A DNA stretch of 64,000 bases from an uncultured bacterium (GTDB lineage Bacteria > Desulfobacterota > Deferrimicrobia > J040), in assembly GCA_964429585.1 (NCBI GenBank), contig CAYSCN010000001.1, positions 49,809 to 113,808 on the forward strand, in the 5' to 3' direction. This document shows positions 75 to 37,599 of the stretch, one piece after another. Below the pieces are notes generated by a model. It saw only the letters and a program-made list of their open reading frames with translations. It ran no database searches and was not told where the DNA came from. Numbering within the stretch: position 1 is the stretch's first letter; each line of letters opens with the position of its first letter. The position numbers were made by a program, and so were the translations under genes.

Positions 75-1439
75 TCAGTAGGCGCCTTCTTCCGAGAGAG
101 TTCCGTATGCCGCTGCTTTTTCTTCCGCCGGTCTTATCGTGAGAAGGTCGTAGACGGTAATTATTACTCCCGCCAGGAATGCTATCCCGAAGAAGAATGC
201 TATCGCCATCCAGAGCCTCATGTAGCTTTGTGCCGTCATGTAGCCCAGGCCGAGCATCCTCTCTACGTAAGACTGGATCACGCCTGCCACGCCGAAAGCG
301 AGTCCGATTCCAAGCATGGAAATGGTCATGGTCCAGAAACCTATCTTTCCCAGTTTTTCGTCGAATACCTCTATCCCCTTTAGTTTTGGGAGCATGAAAT
401 ACGCCGCTGTCAGGTTGAGCAACACGTAGGCTCCGAAGAACGCCAGGTGTCCGTGGGACACCGTTACCTGTGACCCGTGCGTGTAATAGTTGATTTGCGG
501 CAGCGTGTGGGCTATCCCCCAGACTCCAGCTCCGAGAAGGTGGTAAACTGCATTGCCCACGGCGTACGTGACCAGTAACCGGTTCTTTATCTCGCCCCTG
601 CGGTGTTTGACGTGGTTCAGGGTGTCGAAGACCATGAATATGATGGGGAGAGGCTCGAGGGCGCTGAAGATTCCGCCCACCCAGAGCCAGTATCTCGGAG
701 CTCCGAGCCAGTAATAATGATGTCCTGTTCCGGCTATCCCGGTGAACAGAAAGAGTCCTATCTCCACGTAGAGCCACTTTTCAACCACTTCTCTGTCGAC
801 ACCGGTCATTTTCAATAGGATGAATGCAATTATCGCTCCCGTCACCAACTCCCAGGCGCCTTCGACCCAGAGGTGGATGACCCACCACCAGTAATACCAG
901 TCGATGGAAGCGTTCTTGTAGAAAGGAACGCCAAAGAGATAGAGGAGTGCCAGAAACACGAGCCCGCCCAGAAGAGTTCCCTGGATAGCGGTCCATCTGT
1001 TCGCTTTGATCATGGTTATACCGATGTTGAACAGGAATATGAGTGCGCCGATTACCACGAGCATATCCAGCGGTCTTGGGATTTCGAGCAGGGGTCTTCC
1101 CTGTGTCCATCCGAACAAAAACCCTATTATTGCCGCCACTCCCGTGAGAACGAGTATCACGAGCTGTATGTAGGCGAGCTTGGTGGAATAGATTTCGCTT
1201 TCGGTTTCTTCCGGGACTATGTAGTAGGCTCCCCCCATGAACCCGAGCAGAAGCCACAGCACGAGCAGATTCGTGTGAATGGCTCTGGCTGTGGCGAATG
1301 GGAACGCATTCACCACCGATTGTGGAATTGTTATGAAATAGTTGAGCGCCAGGTAGAGGCCCACTATGACCTGAAGGACGAACAGTGGCAGAGCCACCAT
1401 GAAATAGACCTTGGCGATTTGCTGTGATTTGTACTTCAT
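75..1439 (-). CDS. norB: Nitric oxide reductase large subunit (cNOR, heme-copper oxidase superfamily)
   Basis: 454 aa, multi-TM. HLWVEGAWE (non-heme Fe His/Glu motif typical of NOR rather than O2 reductases), GTGHHYYW and HGHLAFFG; adjacent to norC. Confidence 0.92.
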   Translation of the reverse strand: MKYKSQQIAKVYFMVALPLFVLQVIVGLYLALNYFITIPQSVVNAFPFATARAIHTNLLVLWLLLGFMGGAYYIVPEETESEIYSTKLAYIQLVILVLTGVAAIIGFLFGWTQGRPLLEIPRPLDMLVVIGALIFLFNIGITMIKANRWTAIQGTLLGGLVFLALLYLFGVPFYKNASIDWYYWWWVIHLWVEGAWELVTGAIIAFILLKMTGVDREVVEKWLYVEIGLFLFTGIAGTGHHYYWLGAPRYWLWVGGIFSALEPLPIIFMVFDTLNHVKHRRGEIKNRLLVTYAVGNAVYHLLGAGVWGIAHTLPQINYYTHGSQVTVSHGHLAFFGAYVLLNLTAAYFMLPKLKGIEVFDEKLGKIGFWTMTISMLGIGLAFGVAGVIQSYVERMLGLGYMTAQSYMRLWMAIAFFFGIAFLAGVIITVYDLLTIRPAEEKAAAYGTLSEEGAY

Positions 1440-1455
1440 CTCATTTCCTCCCTTT

Positions 1456-2160
1456 TCATTTGAGGTTCGACAGGAAGTCGGCCAGCGCTTCGAGTTCGTC
1501 TTCGGAGAGCTGACTCTGTGGGGGCATGGTCGCTCCGGGCCGGACTGACTGCGGGTTTCTGACGAACCTGACGAAGAAGTTCCTGTCGTAACTTGCCCCT
1601 ACTCCGTCCAGCTCTGGCCCCACGTCCCCTCCGACTCCTTCGATGGAGTGACACTGAATGCAGCCCCTGGTTTTAAAGATTGCTGCTCCTTTGGACATTC
1701 CGACTGCCCCCGCCAGGCGGTAGGTGGCCCTTTTCGCCCTGTCCAGGCTGTCCTGTGGCGGCCAGTCGTTGTTGTCGATTTCGCTGATCCACTTCAGAAA
1801 CGCAATCAGATTGCTCACTTCTTCATCGCTCAGATGCTGGTTTGGCATTTTCCTCCACGAATTGGCGAATGCTTTTTCGGGGCTCTTCACTACAAAGGCA
1901 ATCCCTTCTGCTCCCAGCCTGCGGTAGACTTTGGTCATATCCGGAGCGTAGTAGCCGCCGAAGCCCAGAATAGTGTGGCAATCGTTACAGTTGTACTTCT
2001 CCCATACCTTCTTCCCCGCCACGACTTTCGCGTCGAGCCTGTCGGCGTGAGTCAGAACGTGTATCTGCCTCTGAGTGTCGAATGTGAGATAGAGAAACAG
2101 GACCGCCGACGAAAGCGTTCCCACGAGGAAGATCCAGAATGCGGTTTTCTTCGACATCAC
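1456..2160 (-). CDS. norC: Nitric oxide reductase cytochrome c subunit with an extra C-terminal cytochrome c domain
   Basis: N-terminal TM helix, CNDCH...GGYYAPDMT (NorC-like), then a second class I cyt c domain CIQCH...GPEL...MPP. Confidence 0.85.
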   Translation of the reverse strand: MMSKKTAFWIFLVGTLSSAVLFLYLTFDTQRQIHVLTHADRLDAKVVAGKKVWEKYNCNDCHTILGFGGYYAPDMTKVYRRLGAEGIAFVVKSPEKAFANSWRKMPNQHLSDEEVSNLIAFLKWISEIDNNDWPPQDSLDRAKRATYRLAGAVGMSKGAAIFKTRGCIQCHSIEGVGGDVGPELDGVGASYDRNFFVRFVRNPQSVRPGATMPPQSQLSEDELEALADFLSNLK

Positions 2161-2224
2161 CTTTCCCCCTTTCTAAAATTGGTCTCGGTAGCGATAATTA
2201 TATTTGTGGGGGGATTCGAGGTTA

Positions 2225-2238
2225 TTGACCGAAGTCAA
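2225..2238. promoter_or_regulatory. CRP/FNR-family (HcpR/Dnr-like) palindrome 1
   Basis: TTGAC-CGAA-GTCAA in the norC/hao divergent intergenic region. Confidence 0.75.
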
Positions 2239-2271
2239 GCGGTTGGATTTATTGGATGGGTTTTCTCAAAT

Positions 2272-2285
2272 TTGACTTACGTCAA
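2272..2285. promoter_or_regulatory. CRP/FNR-family (HcpR/Dnr-like) palindrome 2
   Basis: TTGAC-TTAC-GTCAA, second perfect copy starting 47 nt after the first. Confidence 0.75.
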
Positions 2286-2375
2286 TTACAGGCGAAAATC
2301 CTCGAAATATCCTTCGGCAGGATAATGTCGGAAGGTGCAGTGAACCAGCCAAACAGAATTGAGGGAGGTGGTGAG

Positions 2376-3695
2376 ATGCACCGTAAAATTGCCTTCTTTG
2401 TACCCGCAGTCCTGCTGTTAACCGTAATTTTTGCCTTCACCGCGGGCCGCTCAGTTGCGTCTACGGTGGGGGTTCCAAAGGGAAGTAAGGCGTGTGTTTC
2501 GTGCCACACCAGGAAGAAAGTCGGCGTGGCCGCCATAGGCGAGTGGCGCCAGTCCACCCACGCGAAGGAGGGAGTTGGGTGTTATGACTGTCATCAGGCG
2601 AAGAAGGGTGAGCCGGATGCGTTCAAGCATTATGGAAAGTACATTGCGATCATCGTGTCGCCCAAGGATTGTGCTGAATGTCATGAGGAGGAAGCGACCC
2701 AGTTTCAGAAATCTCACCACGCGAGAGGAGGCGAGATTCTCGGATCGCTCGACAACTTTTTGGGAGAAGTTGTGGAGGGACCACCGGCTGTCATCAACGG
2801 GTGCAAGCAGTGCCACGGCTCTTACGTGAAGGTGACCAAGGACGGTATGCTTGACCCTTCGACCTGGCCTAACACGGGGATCGGAAGGATAAATCCCGAT
2901 GGTTCAAAAGGTTCCTGCACCGCCTGCCATTCCAGACACTACTTCAGCGCCAAGGTGGCGAGGAGACCCGAGTCCTGCGGAAAGTGCCATCTGGGACCGG
3001 ATCATCCTCAGAAGGAGATCTACGACGAGTCCAAGCACGGCATAGCCTTCTACTCAAACGTGGACAGGATGAACCTGGACAGCGACTCGTGGGTGGTGGG
3101 AGTCGACTACACCGCTGCTCCGACCTGCGCAACCTGCCATATGAGCGCCACGCCGGATATGGAGGCCACGCACGATCCGGGCGAGAGGATCTCCTGGACG
3201 CTCAGACCCGTGGTTTCCAAACACATGGAAAACTGGCAGGAGAAAAGGGAAAACATGAAGAAGGTGTGCATCAACTGTCACAACAGGAGGTATGTGGACG
3301 CTTTCTTCACCCAGTATGATCTATCCATAGAGCTTTACAACGAGAAGTTCGCTAAGCCCGCAAAGGAAATAATGTCGAGGCTCAGAAAAGCCGGCAAGCT
3401 CACGCCCACTCCGTTCGACGAGAAGATCGAGTGGACGTTCTTCTACCTCTGGCACCACGAGGGTAGAAGGGCCAGGCACGGAGCGGCCATGATGGGACCC
3501 GACTACACGCAGTGGCACGGGTTCTTCGAGGTTGCAGAGAGATTCTACTTCGAGCTGGTTCCTGAAGCCGAGGAGCTTCTTCCCGGAGTCACGAAGGACA
3601 TAATCGCTCAGGACCAGCACAAGTGGCTTAAGGGTATAAGCAAGGAGGAGAGAGAGAAGATAATGAAGTTCTATGAGAAGAGGTATGGAGAGTAG
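2376..3695 (+). CDS. Octaheme cytochrome c of the hydroxylamine oxidoreductase (HAO) family, probably reductive type
   Basis: Start moved to ATG 2376 (GGAGG SD, signal peptide). Eight CxxCH motifs (CVSCH, CYDCH, CAECH, CKQCH, CTACH, CGKCH, CATCH, CINCH), GPDHPQ and MGPDYTQWHG. Confidence 0.85.
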   Translation: MHRKIAFFVPAVLLLTVIFAFTAGRSVASTVGVPKGSKACVSCHTRKKVGVAAIGEWRQSTHAKEGVGCYDCHQAKKGEPDAFKHYGKYIAIIVSPKDCAECHEEEATQFQKSHHARGGEILGSLDNFLGEVVEGPPAVINGCKQCHGSYVKVTKDGMLDPSTWPNTGIGRINPDGSKGSCTACHSRHYFSAKVARRPESCGKCHLGPDHPQKEIYDESKHGIAFYSNVDRMNLDSDSWVVGVDYTAAPTCATCHMSATPDMEATHDPGERISWTLRPVVSKHMENWQEKRENMKKVCINCHNRRYVDAFFTQYDLSIELYNEKFAKPAKEIMSRLRKAGKLTPTPFDEKIEWTFFYLWHHEGRRARHGAAMMGPDYTQWHGFFEVAERFYFELVPEAEELLPGVTKDIIAQDQHKWLKGISKEEREKIMKFYEKRYGE

Positions 3696-3901
3696 AGAGG
3701 TGTGGATGCCGGGCCGGTGCTCCATATGGTCCGGCGTCTCCTCTGCATCATCGGGCGCTTCCCCATAACTTCGGGGAGAGGTGGTTGCCTCTCCCCTTTC
3801 TGCTATCGGGATGATATTTTCTCGTTCGGCTTGGCCGGCGGTTTGGCGTCCAGCGTCGTTTATTTTCATGTTGACAGAGGCGGGGAAGCATGGTTATATA
3901 C

Positions 3902-3920
3902 TTTAGAAAGTTCGAAACTA
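3902..3920. promoter_or_regulatory. Putative ArsR operator, copy 1
   Basis: TTTAGAAAGTTCGAAACTA; 16/19 identical to the reverse complement of 4309-4327; lies just upstream of the arsR start. Confidence 0.5.
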
Positions 3921-3930
3921 AGGAACTAAA

Positions 3931-4281
3931 GTGAAAATAGACAATAAGCAGATATACGAGATTCACGCGGAGTTCTGCAAGGTAATAGCCAACGCCAAGA
4001 GACTGATGATAATAGCTCTCCTGGAAGAGGGGGAGATGAGCGTGGGCGATATGGCGGAGGCGATGGGCATCTCCATTTCGAACGTCAGCCAGCACCTGAG
4101 GGTCTTAAGGTCTCAGAACATCGTTCAGGTGAGAAAAGAAGGGCAGGTCGTTTATTACAGGCTCACCGAACCCAGGCTTCCCAAACTGTGCAAGGAGATT
4201 AGGGCTCTTCTGCTAAAAATGATGACCAATCAGGGAAAAGTGGCCGAGGGATTCGAGAGCGAGGTTAAGGAGAAAGGCTGA
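3931..4281 (+). CDS. ArsR/SmtB-family transcriptional repressor
   Basis: wHTH motif SNVSQHLRVLR...VRKEGQVVYY; Cys16 and Cys87. Confidence 0.88.
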   Translation: MKIDNKQIYEIHAEFCKVIANAKRLMIIALLEEGEMSVGDMAEAMGISISNVSQHLRVLRSQNIVQVRKEGQVVYYRLTEPRLPKLCKEIRALLLKMMTNQGKVAEGFESEVKEKG

Positions 4282-4308
4282 AATTTTTTTTTTCGTTTTT
4301 TTATTTAC

Positions 4309-4327
4309 TACTTTCGAAGCTTCTAAA
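4309..4327. promoter_or_regulatory. Putative ArsR operator, copy 2 (upstream of tusA operon)
   Basis: TACTTTCGAAGCTTCTAAA, inverted near-copy of 3902-3920. Confidence 0.5.
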
Positions 4328-4361
4328 TTTATCATATTGACAAAGAAAGAGGAGGTGGATC

Positions 4362-4616
4362 ATGACTTCCGAGGAATTGAAGGAACTGAAGGTTGACAAG
4401 GTGGTAGATGCGAGGGGAACAGCGTGCCCGGGGCCTCTTCTCGAGGCGAAAAGGGGAATAGCTTCTGTTCCCAAAGAAGGGGTGATGGAGGTTCTTTCAT
4501 CTGACGAGGCGACGACCGAGGACATTCCGCTATGGTGCAAAAAGGTGGGTCACGAATTCCTCGGAGTTGTTGAGGAACCAGGGTACTGGCGCGTTTTCGT
4601 CCGGAGAAAGAAGTGA
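4362..4616 (+). CDS. tusA: TusA/SirA-family sulfur carrier
   Basis: 84 aa, VDARGTACPGP motif and SSDEATTEDIPLWC; GGAGG SD. Confidence 0.9.
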   Translation: MTSEELKELKVDKVVDARGTACPGPLLEAKRGIASVPKEGVMEVLSSDEATTEDIPLWCKKVGHEFLGVVEEPGYWRVFVRRKK

Positions 4617-5008
4617 CGGGAAAAAGCAGGGGAAAGCCCAGGATCCTCGTGTTCTCGACGGTGAGCATCTCCGATCCGGGCATCGACATGGCGGGTTCCG
4701 CCCACATGGATTACCCGTCTACCGTCGAGGTGATATCACTTCCGTGCTCGAGCTCCATCAGGCCGGATTGGATACTTTACGCTCTCGAGAAGGGGTTCGA
4801 CGGAGTTTTCATCGCTGCCGATGGAGGGGACTGCCCGTATCACCCGGATTGCACGACCCTGACTGGAAAGATCGTCCAGAGGGCCCAGGAGATGATGAGG
4901 GAGAAGGGGGTCGATCCGGGAAGGCTCAAGATGGCGGCGATATGCTCGGTTTGCTCCGAGGCTTTCGTTTCCCACGTGAAAAAGCTCTCGGAGCAACTCG
5001 AAAACTGA
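4613..5008 (+). CDS. mvhD: MvhD/FlpD-like [2Fe-2S] subunit, atypical
   Basis: LPCSSSIRPDWILYALEKGFDGVF..GDC..GVDPGRL; GTGA overlap with tusA. Confidence 0.75.
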   Translation: MTGKSRGKPRILVFSTVSISDPGIDMAGSAHMDYPSTVEVISLPCSSSIRPDWILYALEKGFDGVFIAADGGDCPYHPDCTTLTGKIVQRAQEMMREKGVDPGRLKMAAICSVCSEAFVSHVKKLSEQLEN

Positions 5009-5029
5009 ATTTCAGGGAGGATTCAGGCG

Positions 5030-7765
5030 GTGGATTACGACGCCCTCGTTGTTGGAGCCGGAATAGCCGGGATGGAGTCTGCCCTAACCCTGGGCGATAT
5101 GGGATTTCGGGTTCTTCTCGTCGAGAAGGAGCCGAGTGTGGGTGGGAAGATGATACTTTTGAGCAAGGTGTTTCCGACTCTTGACTGCGCGAGTTGCATT
5201 TCCACCCCGAAGATGGCTGCTGTGGCACATCACCCGAATGTAAAACTCCTCAACTACAGCGAGGTGGAGAGAATTTCGAGGAATGGAGATGGAACGTTCG
5301 ATGTGGTTGTTAAGAGGAAAGCGGCGTTCGTTGACCCCGCCAGGTGCACGGGTTGCGGGGACTGCGAGAAAGCGTGTACGGTCCCGGTTCCGGACAGGTT
5401 CAACTTCGGGCTCGTGGCTCATCGCGCGGCTCACATCCCCTTCCCCCAGGCTGTTCCCAAAAAAGCGGTGATAACCAGGGAAGGAACGTCTCCCTGCACC
5501 TACAGTTGTCCGGCAGGTGTGAAGGCTCACGGATACATAGCCCTGGTGAGGGCCGGCAGATACGACGAGGCGTTCAGACTTCACATGGAAGATGCTCCTC
5601 TTCCTGGAGTCCTGTCGCGGGCGTGTTACGCTCCGTGCGAAGCCGCGTGCACGAGGGGTGAACTGGACGGGAGCCTTCGAATCAGAATGATCAAACGATT
5701 CATGGTCGACAGGTATTACGAGGAACATCCCGAACCCGAATATGCCCCCCCTGAGAAGTCGAGAGAGCAAAAAGTGGCGGTTGTGGGGTCCGGACCGGCG
5801 GGCCTCGCTGCTGCCTATTTTCTCGCCAGGGAAGGCTTCAGAGTCAAGGTTTTCGAGGCGATGGAGGAACCGGGAGGCATGTTGAGATACGGGATTCCCC
5901 CGTACAGGCTCCCCAGGGAGGTTCTGGACAGAGACTTGAGGAACATCACTGCCCTGGGCGTCGAGATCGAGACGTGCCACAGGGTGAAGTCTATAAAAAA
6001 ACTGAAAGAGGAGTTCGATGCGGTTTTCATTTCCGTCGGGACGTTTTCCCCGATCGAGCTCGGTATAGAAGGTGAGAATTTCGAAGGGGTGATGAATTCG
6101 ATTGAGTTCTTGAAGAGGGCGTTTTCCGAAAGGGGCCGATTCCTCGCTGGCAAAAAGGTGCTGGTTGTGGGAGGTGGAAACGTGGCGATAGACTCCGCCA
6201 GGACAGCGCTCAGGCTTGGGGCGAGGGAAGTGGAAATAGTCTACCGCAGGACCAGAGACGAAATGCCCGCTCACAGGTGGGAAGTGGAAGCGGCGCTTGA
6301 AGAGGGAGTGAAAATCAGGGAGCTTGCCGCCCCCGTCAGATTCGAGGGGACTTCAGGTGAGTTGACCGGCGCAGTCGTTGTAAGAATGAGGCTCGGAGAG
6401 CTTGACGAAAGCGGCAGGAGAAGGCCGATTCCCATCGAGGGGAGCGAGTTTTCGATTCCCGCAGACGCAATAATACTCGCAGTGGGATTGAAGCCCGAGA
6501 CGTCGGTGTTCGCCGACGAGCTCGAGCTGAACGAAGATGGGACGGTGAAAGTCGATCCTGGAACGCTCGAGACGTCGTTGAGTGGGGTGTTCGCCGGGGG
6601 AGACGCGGTTACTGGACCGTCGATGATAATCCAGGCCATAGGGCAGGGGAAGAGGGCGGCGTTTTTCATTTCCCGATATCTGGAAAATGGAGAAACCAGC
6701 GGATTGGAGTTTCCCGAGCTTCTCCCGCCGGTTGAGAAGGAGAAAGTGTTGAGGGGCGGGTCCGGCTTTTCACGGGACGGCAATGGGAAACCGACCCCGA
6801 AGAGTCGTGTCCTGGTCAGGGAAATTCCCCCGGAGAAAAGGACGCGGTCGATGGAGGAGGTGGAACAGCCGTTTTCCGAGGAAGAAGCTCTTCGAAGCGC
6901 GGGCAGGTGCCTCGATTGCGCCGTCTGCTCGCTCTGCGGAGAGTGCGTGAGAGTCTGCCCCTCGGGGGCGATCGATTTTTCGATGAGAGAGATCGTTGAG
7001 GAGTACAGGGTTGGTTCCGTGATCTTCTCCACGGGGTTTAGACTCTACGATCCCGGTTTGAAAGAGCAGTACGGTTTCGGGAAGTTTCCGAACGTTATCA
7101 CCGCGATGCAGATGGACAGGCTTCTTGCGCCGACCAGGCCTTTCAACAGCGTTCTCAGGCCATCAGACGGGAAAGTTCCCGACAACATCGCTTACGTTCT
7201 CTGCGTCGGGTCCCGTGATAGAACTGCGGACAACCCCTACTGTTCCCGCGTCTGCTGCATGTACTCGATCAAGCAGGCCCAGCTCATTCTCGGCGCTGTG
7301 CCACTTGCTGACGTGACCATTTACTACATGGACATCAGAGCTTTCGGAAAAGGGTACGAGGAATTCTTCGAGCAGGCGAAGGCAATGGGCATCTACTTTG
7401 TGAAGGGCAGGGTCGCGAGGGTAGAGGAGAAAGCGGACGGGAACCTGCTTGTTTACTACGAGGATATAGAGGGTTCCGGAAGAGTGGAGGTGGCGGAGCA
7501 CGATCTGGTGGTTCTTTCGGTCGGACTTCTCCCCGGGAGCGATCTGTCAGGAATGATAGAAGGGGAATCTCTGGAACTTTCGGAGCTCATGTTCGCGAGG
7601 GAGAGGGATGAGATTCTCGATCCGGGAAGGACGAATCTGGAAGGGGTGTTCGTGGCCGGAGCGGCTGTGGGTCCCAGGGATATTCCGGACACGGTGCTTC
7701 ACTCGGGGGCAGTGGCGGCGCAGGTCGCTGCTCGTCTGATGAAAATGAGGAGCGTCAGGACATGA
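5030..7765 (+). CDS. hdrA: HdrA/QmoA-like flavoprotein with inserted GltD/NfnB-like NAD(P)H module (HdrL type)
   Basis: VVGAGIAG FAD site, FPTLDCASC, ferredoxin motifs; insert CTYSCPA...RACYAPCEAAC, GSGPAG, GGGNVA, YRR; C-terminal LCVGSR...CSRVCCMYSIK. Confidence 0.88.
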   Translation: MDYDALVVGAGIAGMESALTLGDMGFRVLLVEKEPSVGGKMILLSKVFPTLDCASCISTPKMAAVAHHPNVKLLNYSEVERISRNGDGTFDVVVKRKAAFVDPARCTGCGDCEKACTVPVPDRFNFGLVAHRAAHIPFPQAVPKKAVITREGTSPCTYSCPAGVKAHGYIALVRAGRYDEAFRLHMEDAPLPGVLSRACYAPCEAACTRGELDGSLRIRMIKRFMVDRYYEEHPEPEYAPPEKSREQKVAVVGSGPAGLAAAYFLAREGFRVKVFEAMEEPGGMLRYGIPPYRLPREVLDRDLRNITALGVEIETCHRVKSIKKLKEEFDAVFISVGTFSPIELGIEGENFEGVMNSIEFLKRAFSERGRFLAGKKVLVVGGGNVAIDSARTALRLGAREVEIVYRRTRDEMPAHRWEVEAALEEGVKIRELAAPVRFEGTSGELTGAVVVRMRLGELDESGRRRPIPIEGSEFSIPADAIILAVGLKPETSVFADELELNEDGTVKVDPGTLETSLSGVFAGGDAVTGPSMIIQAIGQGKRAAFFISRYLENGETSGLEFPELLPPVEKEKVLRGGSGFSRDGNGKPTPKSRVLVREIPPEKRTRSMEEVEQPFSEEEALRSAGRCLDCAVCSLCGECVRVCPSGAIDFSMREIVEEYRVGSVIFSTGFRLYDPGLKEQYGFGKFPNVITAMQMDRLLAPTRPFNSVLRPSDGKVPDNIAYVLCVGSRDRTADNPYCSRVCCMYSIKQAQLILGAVPLADVTIYYMDIRAFGKGYEEFFEQAKAMGIYFVKGRVARVEEKADGNLLVYYEDIEGSGRVEVAEHDLVVLSVGLLPGSDLSGMIEGESLELSELMFARERDEILDPGRTNLEGVFVAGAAVGPRDIPDTVLHSGAVAAQVAARLMKMRSVRT

Positions 7766-9489
7766 AAAGACTGGGAATCTTCATATGCCACTGCGGCGGA
7801 AACATATCCGATTACATCGACGTGGAGAAAGTGAGGGAGGCGGTCTCCAGGCTGCCCGGTGTGGAAGTTGCGAAAACGACGATGTTTGCCTGTTCCGAGG
7901 CGGCGCAGGAAGAAATGGTGGCGGCGGTGAAGGAAGCAAAGCTGGAGGGGATGGTCGTGGCATCCTGCTCTCCCAGGCTTCACCTTCACACTTTCAGGAA
8001 GGTGGCGGAAATGGCGGGGCTCAACCCTTACGCCTACGTTCACGTGAACGTGAGGGAACAGTGCTCGTGGGCTCACAGGAAGGACCCTGATGGAGCCACC
8101 AGAAAGGCTGTGAAGCTGATCGAGGCGGGGGCTGCGAAGGCAGCGCTCTCCGAACCGCTTGTGAGGTTCAGGGTTGAGACGAGACCTGCGGTCCTTGTGG
8201 TGGGGGCGGGGATAGCTGGATTGAGAGCGGCTCTCTCCCTGTCGGATATGGGTTTGTCCGTGTTCGTTGTGGAGAAGGAACACAAGCTCGGTGGGTGGGT
8301 TGGCTCCTTGAGGAAGATGTACCCGGGAAACAGGGACGGGGAGAAGCTTGTGGAGGATCTCCTGGAGAAGCTCTTTGAAAGGGACAATGTGACGATTTTC
8401 ACCGGGGCGGAGCTCCTGGAAAAGTCGGGGACCGTGGGTGATTTCACGGTGAAGGTCAGGGTGAGGGCGGGGGAGACGTTGTCTCTTAATGTGGGCGCCA
8501 TAGTGGTGGCTACGGGGTTCTCTCCTTACGTCCCGGTCGATGGCGAGTTCGGTTTCGGGAGCGACCGCGTGATGACGCTTCCGGATTTCTATAGATTACT
8601 TAGCGAATCGGATGGAGCTATTTTCGTGGATGGGAAGAGGGTGCGCGTAATCGCCTACATATATTGCGTTGGGAGCAGGGGAACCAGGGGATCTGAAAAC
8701 TCGTGTGCCAGGGAATACTGTTCCAGGTATTGCTGTGCTGCGGCGGTCCACGCCTCGATAACGGCGGGTGAAATGGACGGCGAGCTGGCTCAATACCACT
8801 TTTTCAGGGATGTGAGGACTTACGGGAAGCTCGAGGAGATGTACGAGAGGTCCGGAAGGATGGGCTCTGTCTTCGTGAGGTTCGATGGAGATGAACCGCC
8901 GATTGTGGAGGATTTCGGAGATGGGATCCTCGTTAGAGCGAGGGATACTCTGGCAGGGGGAGAAGAAGTGGAACTCGTGGCTGATCTGGTGGTTCTCGTC
9001 ACCGGGATGGTTCCCAGGGAAAACCAGCAACTTGCCTCTGTTCTCAAATTGCCCGTTGGAACCGACGGTTTCTACGGCGAGATACACCCCAAATTGAGGC
9101 CGGTTGAGACGGTACTGGACGGGATTTACATAGTCGGCGCGTCCCAGGGACCGAAGACGGCGCCGGAGGCGGTGGCTTCTGCCCTAGCTGGAGTTGCCAG
9201 GTGCGCAGCCACCTTGCTGAAGGGGTACGTGGAGCTGGAACCGTTCGTGGCAGAAGTGAATGAGGAAAATTGCGAGTGGTGCGGCGAGTGCGAGAAAGTT
9301 TGCCCGTACGGGGCGATCCAGAAGGTGTCCATAGATGGGAGGGAGGTGGCAAAAGTGATCGAAACCCTCTGCAAGGGCGGCGGAGCTTGCGCCCCCGTTT
9401 GTCCAAAAAGCGCGATAGATCTTAAAGGTTACAGGGACGCGCAGATAAGAGCGATGATAGAAGCCATGTGCGGGGAGGTAGGATCGTGA
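7762..9489 (+). CDS. hdrA: HdrA/QmoB-like flavoprotein (no fused MvhD)
   Basis: GIFICHCGGNI, ASCSP, NVREQCSWAH, VGAGIAG, CVGSR...CSRYCC, two C-terminal 4Fe-4S motifs. Confidence 0.88.
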   Translation: MKRLGIFICHCGGNISDYIDVEKVREAVSRLPGVEVAKTTMFACSEAAQEEMVAAVKEAKLEGMVVASCSPRLHLHTFRKVAEMAGLNPYAYVHVNVREQCSWAHRKDPDGATRKAVKLIEAGAAKAALSEPLVRFRVETRPAVLVVGAGIAGLRAALSLSDMGLSVFVVEKEHKLGGWVGSLRKMYPGNRDGEKLVEDLLEKLFERDNVTIFTGAELLEKSGTVGDFTVKVRVRAGETLSLNVGAIVVATGFSPYVPVDGEFGFGSDRVMTLPDFYRLLSESDGAIFVDGKRVRVIAYIYCVGSRGTRGSENSCAREYCSRYCCAAAVHASITAGEMDGELAQYHFFRDVRTYGKLEEMYERSGRMGSVFVRFDGDEPPIVEDFGDGILVRARDTLAGGEEVELVADLVVLVTGMVPRENQQLASVLKLPVGTDGFYGEIHPKLRPVETVLDGIYIVGASQGPKTAPEAVASALAGVARCAATLLKGYVELEPFVAEVNEENCEWCGECEKVCPYGAIQKVSIDGREVAKVIETLCKGGGACAPVCPKSAIDLKGYRDAQIRAMIEAMCGEVGS

Positions 9490-9731
9490 TGGCGGCCGGT
9501 TCGAAGCGGGTCGAGGAGTCCATGAGGGAAGAGATGCTGATGAGGAGGAAAATAGCCACGCTCCTCGCGGAGGGCCCTCTAACAATTCCGCAGATTGCGG
9601 AAAGGCTCGGCGCTCCCGTGAGGGAAGTGACGCTGTGGGTGATGGGGATGTGGCGATACGGCCTTGTAGAAGAAACCGGAAAGAGCGATGACGAGGGGTA
9701 CTTCAGCTACAGGCTGAAGGATGGAGGGTGA
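9486..9731 (+). CDS. Small winged-helix protein inside the hdr/qmo operon
   Basis: GPLTIPQIAERLGAPVREVTLWVMGMWRYGLV wHTH pattern; start overlaps the hdrA stop. Confidence 0.7.
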   Translation: MMAAGSKRVEESMREEMLMRRKIATLLAEGPLTIPQIAERLGAPVREVTLWVMGMWRYGLVEETGKSDDEGYFSYRLKDGG

Positions 9732-9732
9732 G

Positions 9733-10857
9733 ATGACTCGAAGACTCGATCCGGGGTTGCGAAGAGAACTGGTGAATTATGGTGCGGGGGATCTCACGGC
9801 GTGCTTCAGCTGCGGCACATGCACCGCGATTTGTCCTCTTTCCGCTGAAGGGCCGTCGTTCCCGAGGAGGATCATTCACCTCATGCAGCTGGGACACAGG
9901 GAGGCTCTTCTCTCCTCACCAGAGCCCTGGCTCTGTTACTACTGCGGGGAGTGTTCCAGGTCCTGCCCCAGAGAAGCCAACCCGGGCGAGACGATGATGT
10001 CCGCCAGGAGATGGCTGATAGCTTCTTATGACAGGACCGGGATATCCGGGAAGATATATTCTTCCAGGCTCTGGGAGTGGGGACTTGTGCTTTTATCTTC
10101 TGCAATTGTAATTATCCTTTTCGCTCTCTTTCACGGCCCCATCGTTCTGGACAGGGTCGAACTGAACACGTTCGCTCCCGTCGAATGGATCTCCCTCGCC
10201 GACCACCTGGGAGCTGCATTTGCCGTGACTGTTCTTCTCGTCAACGCTCTCACGATGGCACGTTACATAATGGATGGCGAGAGAGTTCCATTAAGTGCCT
10301 ACGTAAAAGGTGTTCCCACTTTTTTCTCTCACTTCTTCACTCAGAAGAGGTGGAAAGAGTGCGGAGAGGACAGATCGAAGTGGTTCAGACACTTCATTCT
10401 CGTTAGCGGATACGTGACCATGATGATCATTATAATTTTCTTCCTCGATTGGTTCCAGACGGACAGGGTGTATCCGCTCCTTCACCCTCAGAGGCTGCTC
10501 GGTTACTACGTCACTTTCGCTCTGATTTACGGGACGGTTGGTTTCGCCTGGGGCAGGATCAGGAGGGATGACGAAATGCACCGCTTCACGCATCCAACAG
10601 ACTGGACCTTCCTGATCCTCCTGTTTCTGATAGCTCTGACCGGCATTCTCGTTCACGTTTTCAGGTTAACGGGCATGCCGCGACTCACGTACTACACGTA
10701 CGTAGTCCACATGGCGGTAGACGCTCCGTGGCTTCTCGTGATCATCCCATTCGGGAAGTGGACACATCTGCTTTACAGACCCTTTGCTCTTTATCTCCTC
10801 GACGTGAAGGAGAGGGCACGAAACGCGGAAGGAGTTCGTGAAGGGGCGGCGGCGTGA
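9733..10857 (+). CDS. qmoC: QmoC-like protein (HdrC 2x[4Fe-4S] fused to heme b membrane domain)
   Basis: CFSCGTCTAICP and CYYCGECSRSCP followed by several TM helices with His residues (RHF, VHM, WTHL). Confidence 0.82.
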   Translation: MTRRLDPGLRRELVNYGAGDLTACFSCGTCTAICPLSAEGPSFPRRIIHLMQLGHREALLSSPEPWLCYYCGECSRSCPREANPGETMMSARRWLIASYDRTGISGKIYSSRLWEWGLVLLSSAIVIILFALFHGPIVLDRVELNTFAPVEWISLADHLGAAFAVTVLLVNALTMARYIMDGERVPLSAYVKGVPTFFSHFFTQKRWKECGEDRSKWFRHFILVSGYVTMMIIIIFFLDWFQTDRVYPLLHPQRLLGYYVTFALIYGTVGFAWGRIRRDDEMHRFTHPTDWTFLILLFLIALTGILVHVFRLTGMPRLTYYTYVVHMAVDAPWLLVIIPFGKWTHLLYRPFALYLLDVKERARNAEGVREGAAA

Positions 10858-10915
10858 AGGGAGTTTTGATCCCGATTCTATAGGGATGCGGGAAATACAT
10901 GAAGGAGGGAAAACG

Positions 10916-11290
10916 ATGTCGAACGAAAACGGCGAAAAACTCGTTGTGATCGGGACTCACGGGGTGGAGGATCCCGAGAGAGCCATCCTGCCTTTCGTGG
11001 CGGCCAATACGGCTCTGACGATGGACGTGAAAGCGGTCGTGATACTTCAGGGAGATGGCGTTACGATCGCGAGGAAGGGCGCTGCGGAGCAGGTTTCCGT
11101 TCCCGGCTTCCCGCCTCTGGGTGAGTTGCTGAAAAACGTCACGGAGATGGGAGGGGAGATTTTGCTCTGCACCCCGTGCGTCGAGACGAGAGGTATTCCA
11201 AAGGAAGAGCTCGTGGATGGGGCGGTCCTCATCAAGGCGGGCAGGGTGATGGCGGAAGTCCTCGAGGCGAAAAACGTGCTCACGTATTGA
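10916..11290 (+). CDS. DsrE/DsrF-family sulfur-relay protein
   Basis: THGVEDPERA, LQGDGV, LLCTPC; start moved to ATG 10916 (GGAGG SD). Confidence 0.82.
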   Translation: MSNENGEKLVVIGTHGVEDPERAILPFVAANTALTMDVKAVVILQGDGVTIARKGAAEQVSVPGFPPLGELLKNVTEMGGEILLCTPCVETRGIPKEELVDGAVLIKAGRVMAEVLEAKNVLTY

Positions 11291-11398
11291 TTTCACGAAG
11301 AGGGCACACAGGAGGCGATCAGATCATGCGGGCGCGGTGCGCTTCCCTTTCGGACCGCTGACGTGGTGTGTTTCTTCACCAGCCGAAGAGGAGGAAGG

Positions 11399-11420
11399 GG
11401 AGAGGGGAGCGCCCCTCTCC
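11399..11420. terminator. Hairpin between convergent genes
   Basis: GGAGAGGGG-agcg-CCCCTCTCC, perfect 9-bp stem. Confidence 0.55.
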
Positions 11421-11431
11421 GATGTGATCGC

Positions 11432-12202
11432 TCACTTGACCACTACGGTTGTTTTGTCTACGCCGGTGTTTCCGGTGACTTCATCGTAAGCGTAAACGGT
11501 TATCTCGTAGACCCCCTTTTTCGAGGTTTTGAGGGTTCCCTGGAAGATGCTCGTCTTGCCGGAAAAGGAGAGGGGGATTTCCTCAATCTTTTCCCCATTT
11601 CTCTTCACAATGGCTTTCACTTCATATTTGTTCGCGTCCCATATGAAATTTTCCTTGATGGGACACCCGCACATCATTGTAACGTTGGCTCTGATCGGAA
11701 TCTCGAGGGAATCGCCCTTGAGCTTCACTATTTTGTGAGCTCTGGGCTTAAGGACGTCGACGACGAAGCCGGGGATTTCGATAATTACTCCGTCCCCTTC
11801 GATGTTCTTTCCCGGAATCAACCATATTTGGGTCGATGCCTTGATCGCAGATTGAGCCTGAGCGTACGGAGCCAGGACTTCGATCGTGACGAGAGTCGGT
11901 TCGTTGATGTCGATTGTGGTTTCGAATTTCGCGGCTTTGTCGTCGGAGAGCCTCTTTCCCCTGATGTGGGGGGCTTTCATCAGGATTTTGGTGTTTCCCG
12001 TCGTGCCGAAAGTGAATCCTTTCGCGAGGATTTCGCCGGTTTGCGCGTCTCTCACCACCACGAGTGCTCCTCCCATAGAAGTTCCGATGAATTTGGCGTC
12101 TTTGGCCCGGGCTCTGACCACGAGCCTGGTTTCCACTGCGCTGGACGTGCCTGCAAAAAGTAAAAGTAAACCCGTCAAAAAAACAACAAGTCCTTTTTTC
12201 AT
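11432..12202 (-). CDS. Secreted beta-rich hypothetical protein with MMCGCP motif (putative metal binding)
   Basis: Signal peptide MKKGLVVFLTGLLLLFAGTSSA; NVTMMCGCP; own sigma54 promoter. Confidence 0.7.
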   Translation of the reverse strand: MKKGLVVFLTGLLLLFAGTSSAVETRLVVRARAKDAKFIGTSMGGALVVVRDAQTGEILAKGFTFGTTGNTKILMKAPHIRGKRLSDDKAAKFETTIDINEPTLVTIEVLAPYAQAQSAIKASTQIWLIPGKNIEGDGVIIEIPGFVVDVLKPRAHKIVKLKGDSLEIPIRANVTMMCGCPIKENFIWDANKYEVKAIVKRNGEKIEEIPLSFSGKTSIFQGTLKTSKKGVYEITVYAYDEVTGNTGVDKTTVVVK

Positions 12203-35991: not shown

Positions 35992-37599
35992 TCAGTCCTC
36001 CTCGTATCTCATTGCCCCTCTGGGACATTCCGTCCAGCATATTCCGCACCCCTTGCAATGGTCGTAGTCCAGGACGATGGAGTCGTTCTCCCTGACAGCG
36101 GCCCCGTCGGGACAGAAGATGACGCAATTTTCACACAGGTTGCAGACGCCGCAGGACATACACCTTTGAGATTCCCTCATCGCCTCTAGAGGGGTGAGTG
36201 TTCTGTATATTTCTTCGAAAGACTTTGCCCGCTCGTGGATCGGCAGGATCTTTACCCTGATCCTTTCGGAAAGCTTCACGTAATCGGGGTTCAGGCATTC
36301 GGGGCCAGCCAGTGGGGGATTCTCAGGTGAAGTCGAGACGTTTACGAGCCCCCACTCGGCGAGAAGGGCGAAAGCTTCTTCTCTCCCGCTTCCAATGGCG
36401 TGCGTGACGGTCTTGGCGGTTCCGTGGGCGGCATCTCCGGCGAAGACGATTTTTTCCGAACCAGCGAAGTCGCTATCCGTGAACATGGGTCGTCCTCCAG
36501 TGGCTAGGATTACTATACTGCAGGGGACGAAGTGGTCCGTTCCCTCCAGGGGAACGACCTGCCCTCTTCCGCCGGCTTCGTCTTTACGGATTTCCGTTTT
36601 TCTGAGAACAAGACCCTCCAGATTACCTTTCCCGTCGTATACGGGGCGGATGGGAGTAACCCTGAAGACGAAATTCACTCCTTCTTTCACTGCCTCCTCG
36701 TATTCCTCCCTGTAGGCGGGCATTTCTGACTCCGTTCTCCTGTAGTAGACGCTCACGTCCGCTCCGAGACGCCATGCGACTCTCGCGCTGTCCACGGCAC
36801 TGTTGCCTCCTCCCACCACTGCCACCGCCAGGCCCGATAAATCCGGGAGTTTTCTCTTCGCTTTTTCGAGAAAATCGTGCGCGAAAAGAACCCGGTTCCC
36901 GTCGGGGAGGAGTTCTCCCGTTTCCGGAGGCGTCCATGCTCCGGTGGCTACCAGGACCGCGTCGTATTCGTTTTCGAGTTTCTCGAGTTCAGAACGGTTG
37001 ATTTCTTTCTGGACGAACCTAACTCCCCAATCGAGCAGGCGGGAGATTTCTCCCCTGACCACCCTGGCGGGGAGCCTGTATTCCGGGATCACGTGGAGCA
37101 GCATGCCGCCTGGTTGTCGTTTCGCATCAAAGACGGTGACGCTGAACCCGTGGAGGGTCATCTGATATGCGAATGAGAGCCCCGCGGGGCCGCTGCCGAC
37201 CACGCAGACTTTTCCTTCCGAGCTTTTTTTCTTTTCCAGAAGCCCGTAGCGTTCGGAAAGGGCCGTATCTCCGATGAATCGTTCGAGGAAGTTCACGGCG
37301 ACTGCTCTGTCGAAGTGTTCCCTGTTGCACTCCCTCTCGCAGAACCGGTAGCACACTCTTCCCGTGGTTGCGGGAAATGGATTCACCCTGACCAGTTCGC
37401 GGAAGGCTTCCTCTATGTTTCCTCTTTTGAGGTGGTCGATGAAAATTTCCGGCCTGGCTCCGGCGGGACAGGCTTTTCTGCAGGGAGATAAGAGTGTTGC
37501 GAGTGCCGGTTTGAGATGACGCCAGGCGGAGGTGGTATTGTTTAGAGTGGACTTCCAGGCAAGAGGTGGAATCAGCTTGTCTTCAGCCAGCATCTTCAT
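35992..37599 (-). CDS. Fusion of PorD-like delta ferredoxin with a GltD/NfnB-like FAD/NAD(P) oxidoreductase
   Basis: N-terminal TSAWR (PorD-like), CRKACPAG, GRVCYRFCEREC, GSGPAG, GGGNSA, YRR; C-terminal CVIFCPD...CKGCGICWTECP. Confidence 0.8.
   Translation of the reverse strand: MKMLAEDKLIPPLAWKSTLNNTTSAWRHLKPALATLLSPCRKACPAGARPEIFIDHLKRGNIEEAFRELVRVNPFPATTGRVCYRFCERECNREHFDRAVAVNFLERFIGDTALSERYGLLEKKKSSEGKVCVVGSGPAGLSFAYQMTLHGFSVTVFDAKRQPGGMLLHVIPEYRLPARVVRGEISRLLDWGVRFVQKEINRSELEKLENEYDAVLVATGAWTPPETGELLPDGNRVLFAHDFLEKAKRKLPDLSGLAVAVVGGGNSAVDSARVAWRLGADVSVYYRRTESEMPAYREEYEEAVKEGVNFVFRVTPIRPVYDGKGNLEGLVLRKTEIRKDEAGGRGQVVPLEGTDHFVPCSIVILATGGRPMFTDSDFAGSEKIVFAGDAAHGTAKTVTHAIGSGREEAFALLAEWGLVNVSTSPENPPLAGPECLNPDYVKLSERIRVKILPIHERAKSFEEIYRTLTPLEAMRESQRCMSCGVCNLCENCVIFCPDGAAVRENDSIVLDYDHCKGCGICWTECPRGAMRYEED

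Follow-up and report, generated by a model that had tools for sequence, protein, structure and literature searches.

A widespread HdrA/Qmo-like operon encoded with the sulfur carriers TusA and DsrE, and what it might do

What might a complex built on the HdrA/Qmo scaffold do in a bacterium that has no adenosine 5'-phosphosulfate (APS) reductase for it to serve? The question is raised by a stretch of 64,000 nucleotides (the window) from an uncultured member of the Desulfobacterota (class Deferrimicrobia, J040; GenBank assembly GCA_964429585.1, contig CAYSCN010000001.1, positions 49,809 to 113,808 of the forward strand), in which a single plus-strand operon at 3931-11290 holds, in order, arsR, tusA, an mvhD-like gene, an hdrA fused to a gltD-like module, a second hdrA, a gene for a small winged helix-turn-helix (wHTH) protein, a qmoC-like gene and dsrE. 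Our tentative answer, to which we give a probability of about 0.4 from the sequences and from analogy with solved enzymes, is that the products may form a three-port complex that joins NADPH, menaquinone and the sulfane sulfur of TusA and DsrE, with net reduction of that sulfur to sulfide.

A preliminary description of this DNA had picked out a tightly coupled run from tusA to dsrE, and that run is indeed present, all on the plus strand, with genes that overlap or nearly abut; its list began one gene late, since arsR (3931-4281, 116 amino acids, a repressor of the ArsR/SmtB family) is part of the same unit. The stop codon of tusA (4362-4616, 84 amino acids) and the start of the mvhD-like gene (4613-5008, 131 amino acids) share 4 nucleotides (GTGA), and the first hdrA (5030-7765, 911 amino acids, of the HdrL type, its GltD/NfnB module at nucleotides 5483-6913) is joined to the second (7762-9489, 575 amino acids) by an ATGA overlap. 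The open reading frame (ORF) of the wHTH gene (9489-9731) opens at 9468, and its likely start is the ATG at 9489, which forms a TGATG overlap with the hdrA stop and has a strong ribosome-binding site; the start of the qmoC-like gene (9721-10857, 378 amino acids) overlaps its 3' end. The ORF of dsrE (10916-11290) opens at 10838, and translation probably begins at the ATG at 10916, which follows a good ribosome-binding site GAAGGAGGG. These starts give a cysteine-free wHTH protein of 80 amino acids and a DsrE of 124, and relatives have been called at 77-82 and 124 amino acids, respectively.

The two HdrA-like flavoproteins are unequal, and the domains of one complement those of the other. In the 911-residue protein, residues 4-151 aligned with residues 145-291 of HdrA from the solved Methanothermococcus enzyme and residues 629-905 with HdrA 289-567, while the insert between them (153-634) aligned with chains of the NfnB/GltD type (9bov, 393 bits; 9n5u, 362 bits; NfnB 4ylf_B, 326 bits), so that the two clusters of the inserted ferredoxin domain of HdrA flank a complete NAD(P)H/FAD/2x[4Fe-4S] module. 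The insert has the features that mark the NfnB/GltD family, namely two N-terminal [4Fe-4S] motifs, an FAD fold and an NAD(P)H fold with GGGNxA...YRR, and the GGGNVA and YRR motifs on which the preliminary description had rested its NADPH-type assignment were located within it, at residues 381-386 and 405-407; GAGIAG (9-14), DCASC (52-56) and GSGPAG (253-258) complete the set of motifs. Judged from YRR only, the module probably prefers NADPH over NADH. The rest of the protein is the TrxR-like core of HdrA without the N-terminal and C-terminal ferredoxin domains, and it retains the flavin-side CxxC (in DCASC); of its cysteines, 20 do not vary and another is present in 24 of 25 sequences. The 575-residue HdrA, of which residues 3-234 and 238-573 aligned with the HdrA of 8rvu (380 bits), retains the N-terminal cluster domain and the C-terminal ferredoxin domain, and has neither the inserted ferredoxin domain nor the CxxC beside the FAD. 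Its last (second) ferredoxin motif, CKGGGACAPVCP at 9370-9405, has three cysteines in all 30 orthologues, against four in the counterpart of canonical HdrA (CxxCxxCxxxC), and the cluster nearest the HdrC-like domain of QmoC may be a [3Fe-4S] cluster or use another ligand.

A second NADPH module of the NfnB/GltD type lies elsewhere in the window, at 36073-37491 within a 535-residue ORF (35992-37599, minus strand), and is 39% identical (252 bits) to the HdrL insert; this genome nests such modules in more than one iron-sulfur scaffold. In some relatives hdrL is split over reading frames (L053:10212-13219, G044:C63:25489-27825 and G053:C5:75437-77841), and these may be frameshifts, pseudogenes or assembly errors.

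The membrane end of the system is a QmoC-like protein with an HdrC-like domain, in which eight cysteines in two four-cysteine motifs, as for 2x[4Fe-4S], are invariant in 19 of 19 sequences, and a membrane domain with several hydrophobic stretches between residues 115 and 345. Four histidines (H138, H224, H330 and H349) are conserved in 18-19 of the 19, enough for the two haems b predicted for such a domain. To the NCBIfam qmoC model (NF038018, cut-off 300) the protein scored 201.2 bits and its operon orthologues 196-208, against 407.7 and 397.1 for canonical QmoC encoded beside aprBA, and in one case a low-scoring operon QmoC shares its genome with a canonical copy. Together, the subunit domains and cofactor motifs support the earlier view of a Qmo/Hdr-like, membrane-anchored and NAD(P)H-linked complex.

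Where, then, could sulfur enter such a scaffold? The MvhD-like protein, which is a free-standing product of its own 131-residue gene, as first described, and not fused to a QmoB, matched FlpD in Pfam at 97.8 bits and 5odc_D at 49.5 bits. Its five cysteines (C45, C74, C80, C111 and C114) are invariant in 31 of 31 sequences, and they do not follow the methanogen pattern of CCxxC, xCSG and GC...GDC: the canonical CCxxC and GGC positions are absent from it and from all 31 orthologues, two canonical positions are kept, and three new invariant cysteines lie in HPDC and CSVC. The canonical positions are kept in methanogen MvhD, in two canonical QmoB tails and in 14 of 14 MvhD proteins sampled from HdrL-MvhD and HdrA-QmoC-HdrA-MvhD clusters that have no TusA, and so across the sampled loci the rewired set co-varies perfectly with the presence of tusA. 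Because the change in the cysteines tracks tusA, whose stop codon overlaps the mvhD start, the MvhD-like protein is our preferred candidate for the site of contact with sulfur.

The two presumptive partners at that site are recognizable sulfur carriers. TusA scored 78.6 bits in Pfam (cut-off 28.6) and has its active-site Cys22, in CPGP, in 31 of 31 sequences, and it falls below the equivalog cut-off for Escherichia coli TusA (47 vs 78). DsrE scored 62.4 bits (cut-off 22.7) and has a conserved CTPC motif, of which C111 is kept in 21 of 21 sequences and C114 in 20 of 21 (ORF numbering); it aligned with the DsrE3A structure 3MC3, with the first CTPC cysteine on a 3MC3 cysteine that is presumably the DsrE3A active site.

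The preliminary description had staked its reading on tusA and dsrE being conserved with the cluster and had proposed a survey of synteny, and when such a survey was run the carriers proved to be conserved members. More than 7,800 full-length relatives of the 911-residue protein exist at about 60-65% identity, and of 80 loci fetched from named genomes 39 were of the operon type, from at least 10 phyla; the source groups are metagenome-assembled genomes (MAGs) labelled Deltaproteobacteria/Myxococcota, Deferrimicrobium, Gemmatimonadota, Methylomirabilota, Acidobacteriota, Chloroflexota, Actinomycetota, Bacteroidota, Hydrogenedentota and Armatimonadota. TusA and the MvhD-like protein were each present in 30 of the 30 loci with a readable upstream flank and DsrE in 20 of the 23 with both flanks readable; ArsR was adjacent in 16. 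The MvhD-like protein used as a query found 6,408 relatives, and all three of the contexts inspected, among them cultured Desulfotomaculum copahuensis and a Dissulfurimicrobium MAG, held the same operon. Within its own class the operon is patchy and accessory-like, with a full-length orthologue in 10 of 40 relatives (one of six in the same family), and TusA is immediately upstream in all 11 operon-bearing genomes, our own counted. A Pfam census of the 129 ORFs flanking 24 loci found extra DsrE proteins (6), sigma54/PAS activators (5) and Crp-type proteins (5) to recur, rhodanese and CGGC proteins twice each, and no recurrent YeeE, SQR-like or CCG partner, from which it follows that no other catalytic partner is encoded nearby. 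The YeeE/YedE importer was tried as a co-factor and set aside, being found in 4 of the 11 operon genomes of the class (two of the matches weak) and in 12 of the 30 others.

The survey also revealed a sister build. In eight of the 39 loci (L021, L030-L034, L049 and L060), as in L100 and L101, which were found via the MvhD-like protein, QmoC is replaced by a 90-100-residue HdrC and a protein of about 320-370 residues with a single CCG domain, here called HdrB' (Pfam 45.9 bits, with a weak match to DsrK), to give a soluble build; in the eight loci dsrE is usually upstream of tusA. The wHTH gene lies between hdrA and qmoC or hdrC in both builds (29 loci), and its product, identified by weak or marginal winged-helix matches alone in a Pfam scan and a PDB profile search, is probably a subunit or adaptor. 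On a tree of the 575-residue HdrA, soluble builds stand in at least two places that are forced apart by well-supported branches, and the most parsimonious count is four build changes; the end module has therefore been swapped at least twice on a core of TusA, MvhD-like protein, HdrL, HdrA and wHTH. The description of the complex as one without HdrB accordingly stands for the QmoC build and fails for the family, and the sister build, by its HdrC and CCG protein, ties the family to thiol/disulfide chemistry. Since all QmoC-type loci encode TusA and lack a CCG protein, TusA would act at the shared core unless its role is non-redox. The soluble build is present in a cultured bacterium, D. copahuensis, and probably also in Dissulfurimicrobium hydrothermale, for which the genome paper records, as proteins of unknown function, a TusA (LGS26_05795) and a DsrE (LGS26_05760) at a spacing of locus tags (LGS26_05760-05795) that fits the operon.

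Among the fetched loci there was also a different system, L066-L090 (e.g., L082:9107-14753), in hosts that are mainly Acidobacteriota, Krumholzibacteriota and relatives. These clusters have an hdrA-like, a qmoC-like, a second hdrA-like and a canonical mvhD gene, are about 40% identical, and have no match to TusA or DsrE, nor to the GltD insert within the first hdrA-like ORF; they represent a further Qmo-like system, one whose clusters include no gene for a sulfur carrier.

How close is the operon to systems already known? Its parts have precedents, HdrA with a GltD module being the published HdrL type and type II Qmo being in print, and the literature searched yielded no description of the operon, its two builds or its rewired MvhD, in keeping with the earlier view of an uncharacterised complex. 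With type I QmoABC of sulfate reducers and green sulfur bacteria it shares two HdrA-derived flavoproteins, an MvhD-type module, a QmoC with an HdrC-like 2x[4Fe-4S] domain and a membrane domain of the di-haem-b type, and a presumed link to the menaquinone pool. It differs from it in having a separate MvhD with rewired cysteines, where QmoB carries a fused one, in a QmoA-like protein in which the inserted ferredoxin domain is retained and a full NfnB/GltD module for NADPH is present, in its QmoC below the equivalog cut-off, and in having TusA and DsrE rather than AprBA as neighbours. Type II QmoAB are placed nearer to true hdrA than to bacterial qmoAB, and are said to occur with or without Dsr/Apr, their function left open, in the account of Neukirchen et al. 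(2023, PMC10504309). Compared by that description, the operon is like type II in that both of its HdrA proteins match methanogen HdrA at 370-380 bits; it is unlike it in that the text consulted is silent on an NADPH insert, on linkage to TusA and DsrE, on a free MvhD-like protein and on a wHTH subunit.

HdrL of Desulfobacterium autotrophicum HRM2 is an HdrA with a NAD(P)H module of the GltD/NfnB type, encoded next to mvhD (Strittmatter et al. 2009, PMC2702500). By that definition, the 911-residue protein with its adjacent mvhD is of the HdrL type. Loci at about 40-45% identity, presumably of the classical HdrL type, are larger, have a canonical MvhD next in order and show no TusA, DsrE or QmoC pattern, whereas in the operon an mvhD with non-canonical cysteines precedes the gene, which is paired with a second HdrA and QmoC. 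The methanogen complexes HdrABC-MvhAGD, Fdh-Hdr and Elp-Hdr (5odc, 7bkb and 8rvu) have in common with the operon the fold and FAD site of HdrA, its cluster motifs and the connector MvhD. They differ from it in that the operon splits the functions of HdrA over two unequal subunits, has no hydrogenase, Fdh or Elp donor module, and replaces HdrC-HdrB with QmoC and the free-ferredoxin arm with an NADPH module; the two-CCG catalytic HdrB that typifies HdrABC is not encoded in the operon, and the sister build's protein has one CCG domain. The sHdr systems (PMC11094781) are likewise Hdr-type complexes genetically tied to transferases of the TusA and DsrE families and sometimes under ArsR-type control. 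The operon has a single HdrC-like domain in place of their HdrB1/B2 and HdrC1/C2 pairs, whereas its second HdrA-type protein, NADPH module, MvhD and QmoC have no equivalent in sHdr; no gene for a lipoate-binding protein like their LbpA was found among the operon genes or recurrent neighbours, the rest of the genome not having been searched for one. Finally, the insert is a complete module of the DsrL/NfnB/GltD family, 43-45% identical to a GltD/NfnB-like ORF, presumably DsrL, beside dsrAB in hosts of the operon, but in the operon it is nested in HdrA and has no NfnA-like partner.

When the operon is expressed may be indicated by its upstream region. A likely sigma70 promoter of near-consensus sequence, read directly from the DNA, lies at 3871-3899 (-35 TTGACA at 3871-3876, a 17-nucleotide spacer and -10 TTATAT at 3894-3899, plus strand); it was unlisted by a consensus scan because its -10 fails that scan's A2 rule, and a TTGACA -35 also precedes arsR in L011, L012, L026, L100 and L102. 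Directly 3' of the -10 is an operator-like inverted repeat, TTTAGAAAGTTCGAAA (3902-3917), and a second operator-like box, TTTCGAAGCTTCTAAA (4312-4327), lies in the spacer between arsR and tusA, both on the plus strand. The 16-bp pattern TTTMGAANNTTCKAAA has exactly two copies in the 64 kb, against 0.08 expected, and none of 100 shuffles contained two matches. A similar box lies within the same spacer in L011, TCGAA-centred palindromes were seen by eye at the same position in the operon's arsR promoters of other phyla, and L016 contains the 11-mer core AGTTCGAAACT unchanged, in reverse complement; the exact 16-mer, searched for in the other loci, is present in this genome only. The ArsR protein scored above cut-off to Pfam HTH_5 (51.7 bits) and NCBIfam HTH_metalloreg (90.7 bits), and its cysteines C16 and C87 are kept in 16 and 14 of 17 orthologues, respectively. 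It was considered as a sensor of the BigR/SqrR type and rejected as one: it scored 66.6 bits to the BigR model (cut-off 155), and in an alignment with BigR 3pqj the alpha2 cysteine position is an alanine and C16 and C87 fall on non-cysteine positions, a conserved two-cysteine site distinct from the alpha2/alpha5 pair of BigR/SqrR. An autoregulated, thiol-based ArsR switch is plausible from these features, with sulfane sulfur or a metal as its signal.

A sigma54 activator with two PAS domains adjoins the operon in L027 (16369-18222, minus strand) and in four other loci without ArsR, and in the L027 protein, the one copy read, each PAS domain has a cysteine-rich CxxxxxxxxCxxxC motif; such activators may be alternative redox- or sulfur-sensing regulators of the operon.

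How might these parts work together? In the solved Mvh-, Fdh- and Elp-Hdr complexes MvhD joins the N-terminal clusters of HdrA to the flavin of the partner, electrons reach HdrC by way of the C-terminal domain, and the low-potential arm is formed by the inserted ferredoxin domain (PMC12350162). By analogy, the unequal pair of HdrA proteins resembles an HdrA dimer that has become asymmetric and has three ports, and we infer that the operon's products assemble as one complex with electron paths like those of the solved structures. At one port, the NfnB/GltD module of the 911-residue subunit would exchange hydride with NAD(P)H, probably NADPH; at another, the C-terminal ferredoxin domain of the 575-residue HdrA would connect, via the two [4Fe-4S] clusters and two haems b of the QmoC-like subunit, with the menaquinone pool; the last would be formed by the N-terminal cluster domain of the same HdrA and the MvhD-like protein. 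TusA and DsrE would hand sulfane sulfur, in the form of persulfide or polysulfide, to the core that both builds share, with the MvhD-like protein as the likeliest place of delivery, and the carrier-bound sulfur would be reduced to sulfide with NADPH as the donor, for disposal or respiration, and the quinone link would balance or conserve energy. The operon would be switched on once the two-cysteine ArsR leaves its TTCGAA-centred operators. A bolder form of the proposal, and one we regard as decidedly unlikely, is that the MvhD-like protein is a new iron-sulfur/thiol site for persulfide or protein-disulfide chemistry that needs no HdrB, with the sulfur of TusA and DsrE as one leg of a flavin-based bifurcation or confurcation between NADP(H) and menaquinone. 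The complex would in that case belong to a new class of enzymes based on HdrA, and the oxidation of sulfide or persulfide could, for example, drive the reduction of NADP+ with no need for reverse electron transport.

In the cst/CoAPR systems of Firmicutes, a repressor that senses reactive sulfur species, sulfurtransferases and an NAD(P)H persulfide reductase act together. This precedent, the invariant carrier genes and the CCG protein of the sister build count in favour of sulfur reduction by the three-port complex, as do the tight packing and conserved order of the genes, the MvhD-like cysteines that vary with TusA and, for the regulation, the two operator copies and the conserved cysteines of ArsR. 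Several observations weigh against it. The QmoC build has no recognizable site for the reduction of persulfides or disulfides, neither a CCG domain nor a rhodanese, and TusA and DsrE themselves carry no redox cofactor. NADPH alone suffices for the reduction of persulfides in simpler enzymes, so a complex this large suggests energy coupling or some other reaction, and the reverse direction would be equally feasible thermodynamically. A YeeE-type sulfur importer is neither linked to the operon among the flanking ORFs nor correlated with it in the class. Lastly, persulfide sensing by the ArsR is unproven, its cysteines being off-position and its BigR score below the cut-off, and a metal signal is possible, as the operon adjoins a copper/mercury island.

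Would a more conventional assignment serve as well? The nearest to hand, an ordinary QmoABC for an APS reductase encoded elsewhere, has in its favour a similar subunit logic of two HdrA-like proteins, an MvhD module and a QmoC, and we give it next to no weight. The preliminary description had noted that the window has neither aprAB nor a CCG-domain HdrB, and the operon indeed has none; it had allowed that aprAB elsewhere in the genome might prove to be the true partner, and the whole genome (2.34 Mb, 100% complete) proved to have no AprA (best match 27.9 bits vs a cut-off of 642) and no DsrA (86 vs 393). Among 31 operon-bearing host genomes, the same eight have both AprA and DsrA, and 23 have neither. 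Three AprA-positive hosts were inspected, and each has, beside aprBA, a separate canonical qmoA-qmoB-qmoC with MvhD fused to QmoB (as in L091/L092), the products of which are only 27-38% identical to the operon proteins. Hence the operon is a distinct paralogous system and not the partner of AprAB, and together with the low QmoC score these results led us to reject a classical Qmo role. It is also conceivable, although we consider it quite improbable, that the QmoC build merely charges or discharges the quinone pool and that the sulfur chemistry of TusA and DsrE is the work of a separate enzyme with its gene at another locus, for instance a CCG protein of the DsrK/HdrD kind that depends on quinol, or a small sulfite-reductase-like protein with a second TusA. 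This genome does encode a membrane CCG protein on contig C4 and a cysG/sulfite-reductase-like/tusA trio on contig C5, and the soluble build demonstrates that a CCG protein can work with the core. However, a search for a hidden HdrB in the genome found three CCG loci, all outside the operon and none in a sulfur context: the C4 protein (G000:C4:39522-41543) is in an EMO/beta-oxidation context, its neighbours being an ORF that by eye resembles an acyl-CoA dehydrogenase at its N-terminus and regulator-like ORFs, and the other two are GlcF/GlpC-like and LutA-like. Moreover, no CCG protein recurs near QmoC-type loci, and small DsrA-like matches occur in only three of the 31 hosts.

Two further explanations keep the complex intact and alter its reaction, and each seems to us possible, if doubtful. 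The complex may run as a bifurcating sulfide:quinone/NADP+ oxidoreductase, with sulfide or carrier persulfide entering at the MvhD-like/N-terminal port as a mid-potential donor, the HdrA flavin splitting the electron pair between menaquinone (via QmoC) and NADP+, and TusA and DsrE removing the sulfane sulfur. This would map one-to-one onto HdrA, since the NADPH module sits in the low-potential arm and the C-terminal domain leads to QmoC. It is also consistent with the textbook potentials, that of S0/HS- (about -270 mV) lying below the mean of those of menaquinone (-75 mV) and NADP+ (-320 mV). Eight hosts possess Apr/Dsr kits that could run oxidatively, and the nearest printed reading of a TusA-linked Hdr cluster, in a 2021 MAG paper, is oxidative (PMC8542988). 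On the other hand, neither an SQR-like nor any other site for the oxidation of sulfide was identified, such a reaction has no evident use for the many organoheterotrophs among the hosts, the scheme does not transfer to the soluble HdrC-HdrB' build, which has no quinone port, and this genome has no AprA or DsrA to take the sulfur further (Sox and Soe were not searched for). Alternatively, the complex may be an NAD(P)H:menaquinone oxidoreductase, possibly with FixABCX-like bifurcation to ferredoxin, for which TusA and DsrE are not redox substrates and, co-regulated but separate, buffer sulfane sulfur or gate or mature the complex. All cofactor motifs for a path from NADPH to menaquinone are indeed present and no sulfur-reducing site is visible, and, because menaquinone and the substrate of HdrB' share the end port, the high-potential acceptor of the QmoC build would already be accounted for. 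Yet the presence of TusA in every locus of both builds, translationally coupled to mvhD, is hard to explain without a direct role, and it is the TusA-linked clusters, and not the TusA-less HdrA-QmoC-HdrA-MvhD ones, that have lost the canonical MvhD cysteines.

The trio on contig C5, outside the window, deserves a description of its own (G000:C5:47222-50590). Its ORFs encode a 438-residue protein that by eye resembles a CysG-type siroheme synthase, a 303-residue sulfite-reductase-like protein with a ferredoxin insert, which is the source of the 86-bit DsrA match, and a 71-residue TusA-like protein whose start overlaps the end of the preceding gene. Of the other genomes, G001, G004 and G029 also give small DsrA-like matches, and G032 has a TusA directly next to the position of the G001 match. 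The trio may be a TusA-dependent small sulfite reductase that could feed or drain the same carrier pool.

At its upstream side the operon is separated from its neighbours by a terminator-like hairpin at 3773-3796 that closes an octahaem-cytochrome gene; the region at 75-3695 holds a minus-strand pair of the haem-copper oxidase family (COX1, 222 bits, and a dihaem cytochrome c) and a 479-residue multihaem cytochrome of the HAO family. At its downstream side the operon ends at 11290, and the next real gene, convergent to dsrE, encodes a 256-residue secreted protein (11432-12202, minus strand) with an MMCGCP motif and no Pfam match; a plus-strand ORF at 11363-12163 was judged spurious, as this gene occupies its place.

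What does the operon mean for the families that carry it? Flavin-based electron bifurcation has its paradigm in the HdrA-type flavoproteins, and Qmo is a long-unresolved link in sulfate respiration; in the operon this scaffold is connected to NADPH and quinone and always encoded with sulfur carriers. The natural swap of QmoC for HdrC-HdrB' is a built-in comparison of how the scaffold partitions electrons, and, as the soluble build is present in cultured bacteria, part of the question can be addressed directly by experiment. The operon occurs in thousands of sequences from phyla of soil, sediment and groundwater (Acidobacteriota, Gemmatimonadota, Methylomirabilota, Chloroflexota, Actinomycetota, Bacteroidota and Deferrimicrobium-like lineages), most of them without Dsr and Apr. 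If it is true that the complex turns over sulfane sulfur, it would be a widespread node in the cryptic cycling of sulfur that has so far gone unrecognised, and one that is invisible to surveys based on dsrAB and aprAB as markers.

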